A stretch of 64,000 nucleotides of DNA from Lama guanicoe (taxonomy: Eukaryota): NCBI GenBank assembly GCA_013239625.1, contig MU053304.1, forward strand, positions 992,001 through 1,056,000, in the 5' to 3' direction. Below are positions 1,446 through 12,547 of this stretch, in pieces; position 1 is the stretch's first letter; each line of letters begins with the position of its first letter. Below the pieces are notes generated by a model, which worked only from the letters and a program-made list of their open reading frames with translations, did not search any database and was not told the DNA's origin. Position numbers and translations under genes: made by a program.

Positions 1446-1877
1446 CGGGGATGAATGACCGGCAATGATGGGAAAGGCAGGGAGCAAGTTCTGAGGAGAA
1501 GCTCTGAGCTGCATAGGAACCTCTGTTCCCACTTCTCCCATCTCCTTCTATGTGTCTGTGACTCAGGGAACCACCCCAGGCCAGGGATCCATGGGAAACT
1601 CTGTTTTGACAATCCCAACAATAGGTCTTGCATTGTCCACAAGCGAGCCTGGGGTGCCGTGCCAAGAGAGCTGTGCCAGAGGACTGGGACCAGGAATGCA
1701 GCACTCAGTTCTAAGCTGAGAGGCTGGGAGCTTGGTCCACCCATAAGGACCTCCTGTATTCAGAGAAGGAATAGACACTAGCCCTGTGCTGTAGGGCTGG
1801 CAAGTTAGTGGGCTTGAGGACCACGTGGGCACAAAAGGGGTCCACGTACCTGCGGGACTGCAGGCCTGGGGACTTGT

Positions 1878-1993
1878 TCACAGGGATTCAATGATGTAGT
1901 AGGCAGCTCCCAGGGCCCCCAGAGCCACAGCAACAGTCCCGAGGGCTTGGAGCACGCGAATTACGATGAGCGGAATGTTTTCTTGTAGGTCTT
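1878..1993 (-). CDS. Alternative (+1) frame of SPATA3 exon 3 encoding a putative C-terminal transmembrane anchor (E)[37 protein letters not shown]
   Basis: The frame is open from the same acceptor to TGA at 1880-1878 (end of ORF 1878..2234). It is entered by any phase-1 donor and contains an uncharged run of about 22 residues near the C-terminus. Confidence 0.55.
1888..1993 (-). CDS. SPATA3: SPATA3 coding exon 3, canonical frame (R)[34 protein letters not shown]
   Basis: Acceptor ttttgcag|AAGAC at 1994/1993, with phase-2 entry matching exon 2. The translation matches the recalled SPATA3 C-terminus (..CGSGG..SCLLHH*). TGA at 1890-1888. A strong donor CAG|GTACGT at 1850/1849 suggests a further non-coding exon. 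Confidence 0.92.
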
Positions 1994-4082
1994 CTGCAAA
2001 GCAAAGCAGAAAACTCACAGGTTGGGGGCAGCTGGGCTCTAGTGCCTGTCTATGGGTGGGGGAAGGAGGAAATTGTGGGGTTCCCTCAGGACTGCAGGAA
2101 TACCCTTCTCCCCCCATAGGTCCTCCTCTCAGGGGAACACAGCTCCCTGCCTCCCTTCCAGTAAAGCTCTCCCACAGGACCTGCCAGGATCCGAGAATGG
2201 GCTGGCGTCCTGGGATGCCATATCCTCTGGACACTCAGGGAACAGGTCACAAAGGCAGTCAAGGCCGCCACATGCCAGGCGCTGTGCTAAACACCTCACA
2301 CCCGGAGTCTTCCTCAAGCTTGCCAACAGCCCTGTGAAGCCCAGTCCACCATGTCGCTCCCTTCTGGAGCTGAGGCATCGGAGGAAGCCGCATATCATAC
2401 CCACCACAAAGGTGGTGGAAAAGGGAAGTATATGATTATGCTAATTATTGTGAGGAAGGGTTCCACAAAATGCAATATCCATTTTGACAAAAATCCTACC
2501 GAAGTAGGGATTCTTATTTAATGGGAATGTGTATTTAAAGCCCAGCACCAACCTTCCACTCCACTGGGAAATGGAAAACTTACGGAAGCAGGTGCTAAAC
2601 TTGAGCAGAATTAAGACTACATGTTTTACCTAGTCAGAGTGGCCTCTGTCCCGCCCCCTCACTTTCCTAATTCTTGTCCCTTTTCCTCCCCACTAATGCT
2701 CTCCCTTTAAAATAGGCAACAGAGGATCCTAAGATCCTTTCAGAGTCAGCTCAGATACGACTGGTACTACAGTGTCTGTCTGGAACCCCGCTCAGGAGGG
2801 AAGCTCTTTGAACACCTACAGGACACGCATCACTTCCTGGCTTGCACCTTTGTTTCTAAATGTACATGTCTTAAGTTACCATGTAGAATGCAGTTTTCAT
2901 GGGTCAAGTTCCCTGTTCTGGTTCCCCTCACGGTGCCTAGCAGCCTATGCAAAATAAGCTTTTCCTACTTGTTGGTTTTAAAGTGATATGAATCCCTGGC
3001 GCAGCATGGCACCAGCTGGACGGAAGTAGTTAAGTGTGCGGAAAGACAGCCGATATTGGCGAGTGAGGCGGGGCGGGGACATGCCTTTCCCTGACAGGAG
3101 GTAGCCAGGCAGTAGAGTATCTTTAGCTCTGGCATGTTCTCCCCACACACGTGGGTGTCTGTTTGCTTCTCTTCTTGTGCCTGAGGGATGATGTTTTCAA
3201 GGATGGACAAGACAGGGGGAGGGACGAGGAAGAGGAGCAGGATGGGGATGGGGGATGGGTGGGCTCTGCTTCTGGGTTGGGGGATCCTCAAGCAGAAAGC
3301 CTCTTCTGTGGACATTTGGGAGACCTGAGTCCAGGCGGAGCCGTTCTGGGGCCCAGAGCTGCGGGTGGGTGGAGGTCTATCTCCCAGACCTTGCACACAG
3401 CCCTGCACCACTGGGAAAGTGAGGGACATCTTCAGTCCAGTTCCCTGGACCAGGGGACGTGGCAGCCACCAGGTTGCTCTTGGTGGCTTCGTGGAAGAGG
3501 AAAAGAAGGGCAGATACTGCGGACGATGCTGTGGGGGCTGCCCGGTCATGGACAGACCCCCGTGGGGCTGCCAGGAACAGCCTGAGACCCTCTCAAGGGG
3601 TGGAGGTCTTACTATTACCATTTACAATTATATTTATCACTAAACTCTGGGGGAAAGTCGTACGCAGTTCAAGAACCAGAAGCTGTCAGTTATGGCCTAG
3701 GCCACAAAAGGAGGTGCTGGCCCAACAGAGCCTTTAATCACCAAGCTCCTGAGTGACGGGGAAGTCATGACGGGCTGGAGCGGGGAGAGCTCTGAGCAGG
3801 GAGGGTGCCTGCGGAGCAAAGAAGCTGAGACCCCCGCAGAAGCAATCCCCGGTAAGGCAGAGTCTCAGCACCTCTCTGTGCAGGTGGGGCACCTCTGGGT
3901 GGGTCTGGTCAGAAAGGGCTGGGCGCCAAAGCCCAGGAAATGGCCACCGGGAGGGAGAGGCTTTCCTTCTGGCCTAGGATTCCCAGGAGGAAGTTCCACA
4001 CGACTGCTAATGCGATCCCACGTGGGGCCTGGCCCTGGGAACCGTGTGCCCTGAGGCTCCAGCCCCCCACGCGCTCCAGAAC

Positions 4083-9797: not shown

Positions 9798-11659
9798 GTA
9801 AATGAATTGGAGAGGGCAGACACATATGGGTAGGATTTCCTGGTAGCAATGAAAGAAACATTCCATTTCATACCAAAGAGCCAAAAATGACACAGAAAAC
9901 AAATCCCTGTTCCCCGGGAGAGCGATGAAGGAAACATAGAGGGTCAGGCTTCAGAGGAGTGGGGAGTTTTCCTATGGCAGTGGAGAAAATAAGTGTGGGT
10001 TCTTTAGCAAGGGCAGTCGCAAGAAGCAGGGAGATGGTATTTGCGGAGTTAGAGGTTGTCCTGGAAAGATGAGGAAGAATGGCACTGCAGTAGTTCTATT
10101 CTAGAACGTCTTCCCCTCTGCCTTCTGGCCTGAGCCCTTCCTAGCCTGGAATTCTGACCCTTCCATAACACAGTCACAGCTCACTGTCCCAGGCTTACTG
10201 GCCACCTCATTGCTACCCACGTCCAGCTCTAGCTGATCAGCTGGTGAACATGCCTGACTTTCCTGCATTTGGGAAGCCCTTTCTCCTCCATCAGGCCCCT
10301 CCCCATCTCTGTCAGAACACTTCCCACCACCAAGATTCATCTCAAGTGGAACCATCTCCTCATAAAGCCTTTCTTGAGATCCCCAAATAGATGCGATCTC
10401 TCTCTTCCAGATCACATTCTGCATGTTAGAGTGATTTCTATCCTTGTCTTGTCTCGAGTTCCCCACTCCCAGACTGTGGAGACCATGCGCCAAAGTCCAG
10501 AGAAGGGGCTCAACTTGCTCTTGCTGCTTGAAGGTGAAGGTCGGAGGACAAAGAATGCAGGGAACCATTGAAGGCAGGGTGGGTGTGGCTGATGGGGGAC
10601 AAGGCACCTTGGAGATGGTCACCTAGGGCTTGTTTTCAAAGAGGGACTGGGAGTTTTGGCTTTGCCTGAGGGTCACAGTCGGAACAGTCCCTAGGTAAGG
10701 GGCTTTCCTAACCAGGTATGGCAGCCCTGGCTAGAGCTCATGGACTATTTAGGTTAGCCGGAAGAATGAGTCTAAGGGGATGCAAAGTTAGAGAGTCAGG
10801 ATGAGGTCCTGACCAGAAGGCTCCAGGTGGTTCTCGTCCTCGGGATGCACCCTGGGCACTCAGAACAAACATGGCACCACTTGTCCTGAAACTAGCATCT
10901 TAGAGCTGGATGACGCCACAGCTGGATGTCACCCCCACACGTCAGCAGCGGGGACACTTGCTCTGGTCACCACCAGGAGGTGGCAGAGCCTCCAGCAACC
11001 CCGGATTGGACTACTGCACCCAGAGCACTCCCCCCTTTCCGAATGCTGTTCCTGGAGGGGCTTTGGGAGACAGAGGCACTTGGTGCTCCTTTAAGAGCCC
11101 ACTGCCCGGGGTCCTCAGATCCACGGATTAAGCTGCTGGGGCCACAGGCCTGGGTTCCTTCATAGGACGGGTCTCAAGGGCTGTGGGTAAGAGTTCGGCA
11201 GCCGGCAGGCTACCCTAAGGCAGTGCCTTCCTTAGAAGGTCATTGTGAGGATGAGTCGTGAAAAGCCCTTAGAACAGTGCCTGGCTCACGATAGGCGTGT
11301 TTTTATTGTAGTTGTGATTCCCGTGGAGGAGAAGGCTAAAGAACCAAGCAAGGAACAGTGGATGTGGCGGGAGGGGGCGGGCCCAGAGCTACAAACTCCC
11401 AAATCTGTACCTTACAAAAGCGTGATTGCGAGCAATGGGTCAGGGGAAGGGGATTGGGCGGATGGGTGGGAGATGTGACTACAAGTTAATTGGAACACTT
11501 TTGACCCGAGATTGCCCCAGCGAGTCACCTGGGTGAGAAATCGAATTCATCTTCACCCAAAACGGTGTAAGAGGAGGCTCTAGGAGAGGGACCGTGACAT
11601 CAGGCATTTGTCGCTACTTGGGACCAACGGGGTCAGGGGACTCCCCTCGTATTTTAAGT

Positions 11660-12500
11660 TTCCCACCTGGGGACAACCGCGGCTACCTGGCGTTCCCACC
11701 TCCCGCCCTCGGGCCCCTCACCATCCGTCTGGGTCGCCTGCTCCACTAGGGGGACGCAGCCTCGCGCCGCCCTCTTGCGCGCTTGGCTGGCGGCGGGCTG
11801 GATGTCCAGGGTGCCCTCGGGGCGGCTGGGGCAGAACACGGCCGTGTACACCTCCACGGAGGGGCCGTGCGGGGCGAAGGCGCTGCAGAGCAGGGTCTCC
11901 ATGCGGCGGCGCGCCCCGGCCTCCTCGTCCGGCCGCGGCTGCACGATGATCCCGACGAGCGCGGCGAGCGGGCGGCCGCCCCGGGCGAGCACCTGCTGCA
12001 GGAGCAGCTGCAGCCGCGGCAGCTGGGAGGCCAGCGCGGCCGCGCGGCACAGCACCAGCAGCAGCTGCGCCCGGGGCTCGGGCGCCGCGGGCGGCTGCCG
12101 AGGCTCCTGGCCGTCCGGCGCCGCATCTTCCGTCGACCGGGAGCCGGGGGTCCGGGCCGGGGCCGGAGCCGCCTCGCGCTCGCACTCCTGCGGGTCCCCA
12201 GTCTTGCGCCCGTCGCACGGCCGCTTCTGCGAGTAGCGCTTGCACTTCGCAGCCGGGCAGTCAGCGCACGTCCACGAGCTGTCTGCGGAGCGCTTGAGCC
12301 GCCGCCTGGCGCAGTTGCTGGAGCTGCTGTGGCCGCTCGTGGCTCTGATGGACGAGGGTCGGGAGGGCTGATTGGTTGGGACTTGCTCCAGAATGTTCTG
12401 CAGGGTCAGGCAGCACTCATCCTGTCTCCAGAGCTCGCCTAGCAGGACAACCTGGCCGTGGCCCTCGATGGACTGGGCGGGAGCCTGTTGCTGCGGCTCG
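11660..12500. promoter_or_regulatory. CpG island over the C2orf72-like exon
   Basis: Very high GC content and dense CpG dinucleotides compared with the CpG-depleted flanks. Confidence 0.85.
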
Positions 12501-12547
12501 GCCTCCCCCTCCCCCGGGGCCCTGGAGGGCTGGGCCCCAGGCTCCAT
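11722..12547 (-). CDS. First coding exon of a C2orf72-like (DUF4630-family) paralogue, 275 codons plus 1 nt
   Basis: Part of the 409-aa ORF 11654..12883. Motifs GHGQVVLLGELW, LLLVLCRAAAL, AALVGIIV, METLLCSAF and AVFCPSRP resemble recalled C2orf72 motifs (GQVLLVGELW, LVFVLCRASSL, AALVGVLV, LEALLRAVF, AAYCPGLP). Likely start ATG at 12547 (GACATGG, strong Kozak). Donor GATG|GTGAGG at 11722/11721 (phase 1). If unspliced, the frame runs to a stop at 11654. Confidence 0.8.

Follow-up and report, generated by a model that had tools for sequence, protein, structure and literature searches.

The window analyzed here is a 64,000-nucleotide (nt) stretch of the guanaco (Lama guanicoe) genome (GenBank assembly GCA_013239625.1, contig MU053304.1, positions 992,001 to 1,056,000 of the forward strand). 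Judged by its sequence, it contains the camelid orthologue of SPATA3, of the alpaca type, a gene with an isoform structure established earlier for human and mouse. The gene has two alternative first coding exons, a frame-shifting cassette exon, and a common last coding exon that can be read in two frames, one of which encodes a hydrophobic tail. The product of the upstream first exon and this membrane-frame tail looks ancestral in sequence comparisons, and the exons that characterize SPATA3 look like later additions. In the following, D1 is the upstream first exon, S1 is the SPATA3 first exon, E2 and E3 are exons 2 and 3, and TM (transmembrane) and Cys denote the two frames of exon 3. The exons were rebuilt by script from the window sequence on the minus strand, as follows (aa, amino acids; GC, G+C fraction; o/e, observed-to-expected ratio).

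12547 (ATG) to 11722, minus strand: coding part of D1, the upstream alternative first exon ("exon 1bis" in the mouse and human literature); 826 nt, C2orf72-like N terminus of 275 aa, phase 1, donor ATG/GTGAGG
11721 to 11654, minus strand: start of the intron 3' of the D1 donor; open, when not spliced out, for 22 codons up to a TAA; rich in G-runs, with a translation conserved across mammals
7599 (ATG) to 7215, minus strand: S1, the canonical first coding exon of SPATA3; 385 nt, 128 aa of low complexity, rich in Ser, Pro, and Gln, phase 1, donor CAG/GTGGGC
4257 to 4083, minus strand: exon 2 cassette; 175 nt, phase 1 at its start and phase 2 at its end; conserved Cys-rich core of SPATA3; acceptor ...CCACCCAG/G, donor CAG/GTTCTG
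4075 to 4085, minus strand: weak donor of exon 2, CAG/GTTCTGGA, with no U1 pairing past the GT
1993, minus strand: start of exon 3, acceptor ...TTTGCAG/A
1993 to 1888, minus strand: exon 3 in the Cys frame (exon 2 included), a Cys-rich tail of 34 aa, stop TGA at 1890-1888
1993 to 1878, minus strand: exon 3 in the membrane frame (exon 2 skipped), a tail of 38 aa, stop TGA at 1880-1878
1976 to 1890, minus strand: codons of the predicted C-terminal transmembrane helix, in the membrane frame of exon 3
1842 to 1852, minus strand: probable donor CAG/GTACGT (at 1850) that closes coding exon 3 towards 3' untranslated region (3'UTR) exons, presumably used in guanaco
11501 to 12500: CpG-island-like stretch covering D1, GC 0.69-0.73, CpG o/e 0.88

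This layout agrees with the first-pass annotation, which had described two phase-1 first exons with donors at 11722 and 7215, a 175-nt exon 2 entered in phase 1, and open reading in all four combinations. The four joins give products of 221 aa (S1-E2-E3), 166 aa (S1-E3), 368 aa (D1-E2-E3), and 313 aa (D1-E3), exactly the lengths that it had listed. S1, exon 2, and the Cys frame of exon 3 belong to the SPATA3 family (Pfam ID PF15662; 62.7, 104.2, and 55.6 bits, respectively, with a gathering score of 27). The membrane frame of exon 3 matches no Pfam family, and a Pfam scan of the 13 other open reading frames (ORFs) of at least 130 aa in the window returned no matches. The open frame of D1 reaches 87 codons 5' of the ATG at 12547, giving an ORF of 384 aa (11654-12808, minus strand). 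This upstream extension is also found in the Logan protein P0001; the named orthologous models all begin at the methionine of MEPG. The CpG o/e is only 0.25-0.35 near S1 (7001-8000). Because D1 lies in a CpG-island-like stretch and S1 in CpG-poor sequence, the promoter of D1 may be the broader one and that of S1 of the testis type.

Most of these products have close counterparts among public gene models. The S1-E2-E3 product is identical to Vicugna pacos SPATA3 isoform X1 (NCBI; P0098) at 220 of 221 residues, the S1-E3 product to the exon-2-skipped V. pacos isoform X2 (P0080) at 165 of 166, and the D1-E3 product to the dromedary model KAB1279116 (313 aa) at 299 of 313. Sorting the 203 retrieved proteins by BLAST against five pieces of the window gave the following counts, which depend on how the searches were seeded.

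S1-E2-Cys: 78 of 203
S1-TM: 8 of 203, including alpaca X2, human "isoform CRA_a," and whale, dolphin, tree shrew, lemur, and hamster models
D1-E2-Cys: 13 of 203, one of which (P0138) is merely 147 aa long
D1-E2 (partial): 3 of 203
D1-TM: 15 of 203, comprising 12 named proteins (bats, carnivores, rodents, and dugong) and 3 Logan entries
D1 followed by intron read-through or another tail: 48 of 203

The set that is unbiased with respect to the tail is the D1-seeded one (78 mammalian homologues, many of them named SPATA3 isoforms). Both tails occur on D1 in gene models from many mammals, and the membrane tail is present in 28 proteins, alpaca isoform X2 and human isoform CRA_a among them. In the three D1-TM Logan entries (P0010, P0025, and P0042, on contigs of 2901, 1078, and 1068 nt), D1 is joined directly to the TM tail. 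Since D1 and exon 3 are 9.7 kb apart in the window, these contigs represent spliced complementary DNA (cDNA). Unnamed contigs with exon 2 only (10) or the TM exon only (7) proved to be intron-exon-intron read-throughs and were rejected as evidence of splicing. Pongo abelii isoform X1 (P0087) contains exon 2 and nevertheless ends in the TM tail, via extra sequence 5' of exon 3, which, as modelled, would restore the TM frame by an alternative acceptor or by partial intron retention. Skipping of exon 2 is therefore not the sole modelled route to the membrane tail.

That all four joins are open says little in itself. When the Cys-frame protein is held fixed and its synonymous codons are resampled, the other frame is open in 20000 of 20000 cases, which rules out openness as a sign of design, and it reaches the observed hydrophobicity in 1062 of them (5.3%). 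Conversely, with the membrane-frame protein fixed, the Cys frame is open in 17764 of 20000 cases; the third frame of exon 3 closes after 10 codons. Nor is the common phase of the first exons informative, since any two alternative first exons that both contribute coding sequence to one gene need the same phase. With the open frames no more than chance would give, the case for function rests on conservation and on RNA and protein evidence.

Conservation of exon 3 is uneven between the two frames and along its length. Across 32 unique TM tails and 65 unique Cys tails, the TM frame has a mean column variability of ~0.06 in the core, against ~0.19 for the Cys frame of the same nucleotides; in the first third of the exon, the values are ~0.40 and ~0.30, respectively. 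The TM core of 13 D1-TM proteins has 11 invariant positions (L290, L293, G294, V298, and L300-Y307), and Q291, T295, A297, and L278 are nearly so. Tails were also paired by common N-terminal sequence (11 matches, with 10 distinct tail pairs). In the core, 26 changes affect only the Cys frame, 5 only the TM frame, and 4 both; in the N-terminal part, 14 affect only the Cys frame, 14 only the TM frame, and 36 both. In that N-terminal part, 24 of the 33 classifiable TM-frame replacements need a change at a position that is synonymous in the Cys frame (P = 0.002). Nearly invariant Cys-frame columns at TM-synonymous sites include three Cys residues, a Ser-Gly pair, and a Leu-Leu pair. Downstream of the Cys-frame stop, the encoded residues E-S-L are mostly retained, as is the stop position. 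By these comparisons, the TM frame is clearly constrained, and the Cys frame is probably constrained too, as read from protein columns rather than from nucleotide alignments with a neutral-rate control. Judged in this way, the membrane tail is conserved more strongly than any other part of the locus and is not a frameshift accident.

The donor of exon 2 is weak, as the first-pass annotation had proposed, and its weakness is conserved across mammals. Scored with an 11-nt motif of the U1 5' end, its U1 duplex has an energy of -5.6 kcal/mol, versus -8.6, -10.3, and -9.0 kcal/mol for the other three donors (-9.0 for the donor at 1850); in positions 1 to 14000 of the window, 12.6% of the GT sites (n = 724) do as well or better. 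Among the 121 proteins that contain the end of exon 2, 24, from many orders, continue with Arg-Phe, which corresponds to an unspliced AG/GTTY as found in the window; the T at position +3 of the donor is therefore conserved. Four further proteins have unexplained continuations (RD twice, RL, and RS).

Read-through is also seen after D1. The tails that follow the end of D1 begin with GEG in 33 cases and with GEE in 7, and the start GEGPEGG.W is kept in rodents, bats, and camelids. The mouse "SPATA3 isoform X3" (P0062; 280 aa, on 41 contigs) is exactly D1 plus this intron read-through. The D1 read-through could be a third, intron-retained C terminus, or its conservation could merely reflect splicing signals in the G-runs.

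The first-pass annotation had labeled the upstream exon DUF4630. D1 is indeed a relative of this domain (Pfam ID PF15443), as both the profile and the tblastn similarity indicate, without being a member by the Pfam threshold, since its match (profile positions 2-70 of 155) scores 22 bits against a cut-off of 25; genuine C2orf72 relatives score 148-280 bits. A profile built from the 13 D1-TM proteins and searched among 1.84 billion representatives finds 94 relatives and matches C2orf72-type proteins, such as pangolin C2orf72 (P0233; E = 1.2e-15), at the level of superfamily similarity. In the guanaco assembly, the true C2orf72 is found ~26 kb downstream (C593:961868-967422, minus strand; the window itself spans C593:992001-1056000) as three exons that match PF15443 with 134, 63, and 65 bits. 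In tblastn, D1 aligns to the first of these exons with 37% identity over residues 135-260 (33.6 bits, E = 3.4e-5). No D1-like sequence occurs in the genome besides D1 and this exon, which is a weaker copy; the TM exon is unique. Because C2orf72 lies directly downstream on the same strand, D1 and the first exon of C2orf72 are tandem paralogues. The pangolin genes MC885_017013 and MC885_017014 show the same neighborhood. D1 and C2orf72 thus share a small α/β domain and are tandem neighbors on one strand, whereas the C terminus of mammalian C2orf72 is different and non-hydrophobic; the reptile "C2orf72 homolog," in turn, ends in a TM tail like that of D1-E3.

The combination of a D1-like domain with a hydrophobic tail is found outside the eutherians. 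Platypus and echidna proteins consist of a D1-like domain and a C-terminal tail very similar to that of the window, with a common ..ALG..AVA.GA.GAAYY core, and turtle ("C2orf72 homolog"), gecko, and lizard proteins combine a D1-like domain with a more diverged TM tail. The D1-TM product matches the reptile forms with 78, 67, 58, and 57 bits (two of these alignments extend to the C terminus), versus 39 bits for the true mammalian C2orf72. A search with exon 2 returned 140 homologues, and all the named ones among the 120 listed are eutherians. Since the membrane tail occurs with a C2orf72-like domain in monotremes and reptiles, D1 plus membrane-frame exon 3 looks like the ancestral product, and S1, exon 2, and the Cys frame look like later additions.

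Several relatives have unusual architectures. In the turtle "C2orf72 homolog isoform X3" (P0281 and P0282), a short segment before the TM exon is missing and the tail is non-hydrophobic; by eye, it resembles a frame-shifted translation of the TM exon. If so, frame switching of the TM exon would be present in reptile gene models as well. In monotremes, the N-terminal domains of the echidna (P0238) and platypus (P0278) proteins differ markedly, that of P0238 resembling true C2orf72 and that of P0278 not, and their TM tails are almost identical, a hint that two different first exons may already be joined to one tail exon there. The two Marmota models P0036 and P0034 (the latter D1-TM) have 257 of 258 N-terminal residues in common. 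P0036 and its Neovison counterpart P0053 combine a D1-like N terminus with a C terminus of the true C2orf72 type (DUF4630 scores of 172 and 148 bits, respectively); each represents either transcription through both genes or a chimera made in annotation.

For the D1 domain, an AlphaFold2 model of P0013 (13 sequences) has a mean predicted local distance difference test score (pLDDT) of 48.6, with confident regions limited to residues ~160-250 (β-α-β-α-β-β) and the C-terminal helix. The best VIA-align match of the D1 model among 48,161 chains is the C-terminal half of UvrC (Z = 6.8), followed by Argonaute PIWI and β-carbonic anhydrase. A Z score of 6.8 is within the noise range, so a fold-based assignment was rejected and no function is inferred for D1. 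In the Protein Atlas, the highest scores (0.81 and 0.80) are to DUF4630/C2orf72-like clusters, which, below the 0.9 level, is a lead only.

The membrane-frame tail may act as a tail anchor. Tail-anchored membrane proteins are a general class of clients of the GET/TRC40 pathway or of EMC. Like them, the two exon-2-skipped products have a single predicted hydrophobic helix at the extreme C terminus. A second strongly hydrophobic stretch is not apparent: the maximal Kyte-Doolittle hydropathy in a 19-residue window is 2.12 in these products, compared with 0.79 and 1.16 in the exon-2-including products, which lack the tail. The best window covers residues 282-300 of 313 (135-153 of 166), and the hydrophobic run stops 3 residues short of the C terminus, so that the predicted TM helix lies within the ~30 C-terminal residues. 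The structure model has a helix at residues 284-312, with low pLDDT. Unlike typical members of this class, the predicted helix contains an Arg and many Gly and Ala residues and is only moderately hydrophobic. The human S1 isoforms have no signal peptide, according to the available passages of PMC12284469. A search of the literature outside subscription papers found no link between C2orf72 and tail anchoring.

Much of the isoform structure has been described for human and mouse SPATA3 (TSARG1). In the passages of PMC7920483 that were available, mouse Spata3 has three coding exons and variable 3'UTR exons, and the database isoform 3 of mouse and human begins with an upstream "exon 1bis" that is in phase with exons 2 and 3; the same source, citing Zhou et al. 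2019, mentions a human exon-2-skipped isoform with a frameshifted C terminus and unknown abundance. The passages of PMC12284469 describe human isoforms I3 and I4 that consist of exons 1 and 3, exon-2-skipped cDNAs cloned from testis, a TMHMM-predicted transmembrane region solely in I3 and I4, and a 355-aa variant with an upstream exon. As green fluorescent protein (GFP) fusions, I1 and I2 are nuclear, and I3 and I4 are mostly cytoplasmic, in 87.5% and ~100% of cells, respectively. The pcDNA5-expressed I3 and I4 are described as less stable than their GFP fusions, for which easier degradation is the authors' hypothesis (PMC12284469). Deletion of the whole locus in mouse leads to lipid droplets in sperm and to hypofertility in vitro (PMC7920483, likewise in part). 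The guanaco gene thus shares with the human and mouse forms (I1 to I4 and isoform 3) the S1 exon, the frame-shifting exon 2, the common exon 3, an upstream alternative first exon joined in phase, and skipped forms with a predicted TM region. It differs in being camelid; moreover, the available passages of the two papers contain neither an upstream exon joined straight to exon 3 nor mention of kinship to C2orf72, of the TM tail as a tail anchor, or of the TM frame as the older one. A literature search, again outside subscription papers, found nothing relevant on overprinting or dual coding of SPATA3. Accordingly, three of the four forms and the soluble-versus-membrane idea for S1 are already in print, and the alpaca isoforms are already annotated; the evolutionary point, that a membrane-anchored C2orf72-like product is old and SPATA3 proper is an overprint, may be the sole new item. 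With the isoform structure present in the literature and in RefSeq-type annotation, the two-by-two arrangement of first exons and frames adds a species, not a principle.

A comparable layout is found in CDKN2A (INK4a/ARF), where alternative first exons are spliced to a common exon that is read in two frames and yields unrelated proteins. Both loci combine alternative first exons with a shared downstream exon in two frames. In CDKN2A, however, the frame is set by the first exon, whereas here it is set by the 175-nt cassette. Because both first exons have the same phase and the cassette sets the frame, frame and N terminus can in principle be chosen independently.

Taken as a whole, the observations are best explained by two promoters, exon 2 as a frame adaptor, an old D1-plus-TM product, and a nested SPATA3 addition, a reading that we consider probable. 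The two promoters would feed two first coding exons, each ending after the first base of a codon: D1, in the CpG-island-like stretch, would supply the C2orf72-like α/β domain, and S1, in CpG-poor sequence, the low-complexity N terminus of SPATA3. Either exon might then be joined to exon 2 and on to exon 3, or straight to exon 3. Since 175 is not a multiple of three, exon 2 would act as the frame adaptor, giving the 34-aa Cys-rich tail when included and the 38-aa tail, as a classical tail anchor, when skipped; the conserved weak donor would make skipping easy. The stops at 1890-1888 and 1880-1878 are 38 and 28 nt upstream of the probable donor at 1850, and as both are at most ~40 nt from the next probable junction, neither form should be a target of nonsense-mediated mRNA decay (NMD) under the 50- to 55-nt rule. 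D1 plus membrane-frame exon 3 would descend, with little change, from a tail-anchored C2orf72-family protein of amniotes, and S1, exon 2, and the Cys frame would be a eutherian-type addition, nested in an intron of the older gene and overprinted on its last exon. The cross-combinations (D1-E2-Cys and S1-TM) would be secondary products. Of the elements that enter this scheme, the exon arithmetic, gene order, homologies, conservation, and weakness of the exon 2 donor are observed here, and the skipped cDNAs, the TM prediction, and the localization in human cells come from the passages of the literature cited above; the promoter types, the escape from NMD, the insertion as a tail anchor, and the order of evolutionary events are what we infer. 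For the order of events in particular, namely, that the membrane frame is the original one and SPATA3 arose later inside an intron of the older gene, overprinting its last exon with exon 2 as frame adaptor, the chances appear about even.

Several points weigh against this reading. About 5% of the synonymous resamplings match the observed hydrophobicity, so that hydrophobicity alone proves little. Some tails were paired across related species instead of within one, and the changes counted in the pairs do not represent independent events. The codon-position test is weak: 26 of 40 Cys-frame core changes fall at position 1 (P = 0.01), and the test has little power because position-1 replacements are generally better tolerated. 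The four joins in guanaco are read from genomic sequence, and the gene models are predictions, some of them possibly projected from other species. Three RNA runs with a reproductive-system label contain fractions of 0.30, 0.28, and 0.25 of the words sampled from positions 2600 to 12599, shares that carry no weight as evidence of the joins. The absence of S1 and exon 2 outside the eutherians is taken from the names among the 120 homologues listed in one word-seeded search. Finally, a D1-exon 2 join is found on none of the cDNA-like Logan contigs among the 78 D1 matches and is nonetheless present in 16 gene models and in the literature, so that any coupling between the choice of promoter and the choice of exon 2 is tentative.

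The first-pass annotation had gone further and treated exon 2 as a soluble-versus-membrane switch available to either N terminus. The exon arithmetic and the consequence of skipping hold, and for S1 they match the human data in the passages of PMC12284469 and PMC7920483; the free two-by-two design does not follow, and the evidence points to, without proving, two nested coding units instead. A true combinatorial unit, with four proteins at meaningful levels and exon 2 as a regulated switch acting alike on both N termini, is possible, though rather unlikely. It would account for four open joins that all exist as public models, for a donor kept weak across mammals, as expected of a regulated cassette, and for human S1 isoforms, skipped and unskipped, that have been cloned and localize differently (PMC12284469, in part). 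However, the abundance of the skipped form is called unknown in the available part of PMC7920483, D1-bearing cDNA-like contigs show the TM join only (3 clusters versus 0), and a D1-TM product that predates the SPATA3 exons fits two nested genes better than a designed matrix.

The preferred reading of two nested units would also be undone if D1 were a separate C2orf72-like gene and its joins to SPATA3 exons were read-through or annotation chimeras. The chimeric Marmota and Neovison models and the many D1 entries that are simply unspliced read-throughs speak for such a gene. Yet the short spliced contigs P0025 and P0042 join D1 straight to exon 3, D1 has no other in-frame terminal exon and runs into a stop after 22 unspliced codons, the non-eutherian relatives share the layout of domain plus TM tail, and exon 1bis transcripts are described in mouse and human in the passages of PMC7920483, all of which makes a separate gene very improbable. 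Even less credible is the view that exon 2 skipping is splicing noise, that the membrane frame is an accidental by-product of a Cys-, Gly-, and Ser-rich exon, and that only the Cys-frame products matter. Such a view can draw on the resampling, in which the other frame is always open and in 5.3% of cases as hydrophobic as observed, and on the lower stability of pcDNA5-I3/I4 relative to the GFP fusions (PMC12284469, in part). It is at odds with a TM core that is 3-fold less variable than the Cys frame of the same bases, with 26 core changes silent in the TM frame versus 5 silent in the Cys frame, with the membrane tail on D1-like domains of monotremes and reptiles, and with the retention of E-S-L beyond the Cys-frame stop and of the stop position.

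If two nested units is the correct reading, "SPATA3" would be a young testis-expressed gene overprinted within an unrecognized older gene for a membrane protein, and the locus would provide a clean mammalian case of gene birth by overprinting of an older gene's last exon. Because whole-locus knock-outs remove both units, the phenotype of the mouse deletion can be assigned to neither of them. In SPATA3 studies where the skipped isoforms count as truncated or unstable by-products, the older function may go unnoticed.

Elsewhere in the window, two AT-rich stretches are strand-asymmetric, one at 32001-36000 (GC 0.33-0.34, AT skew -0.31 to -0.39) and the other at 46001-48000 (GC 0.38, AT skew +0.37). 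These stretches may be interspersed repeats in opposite orientations.

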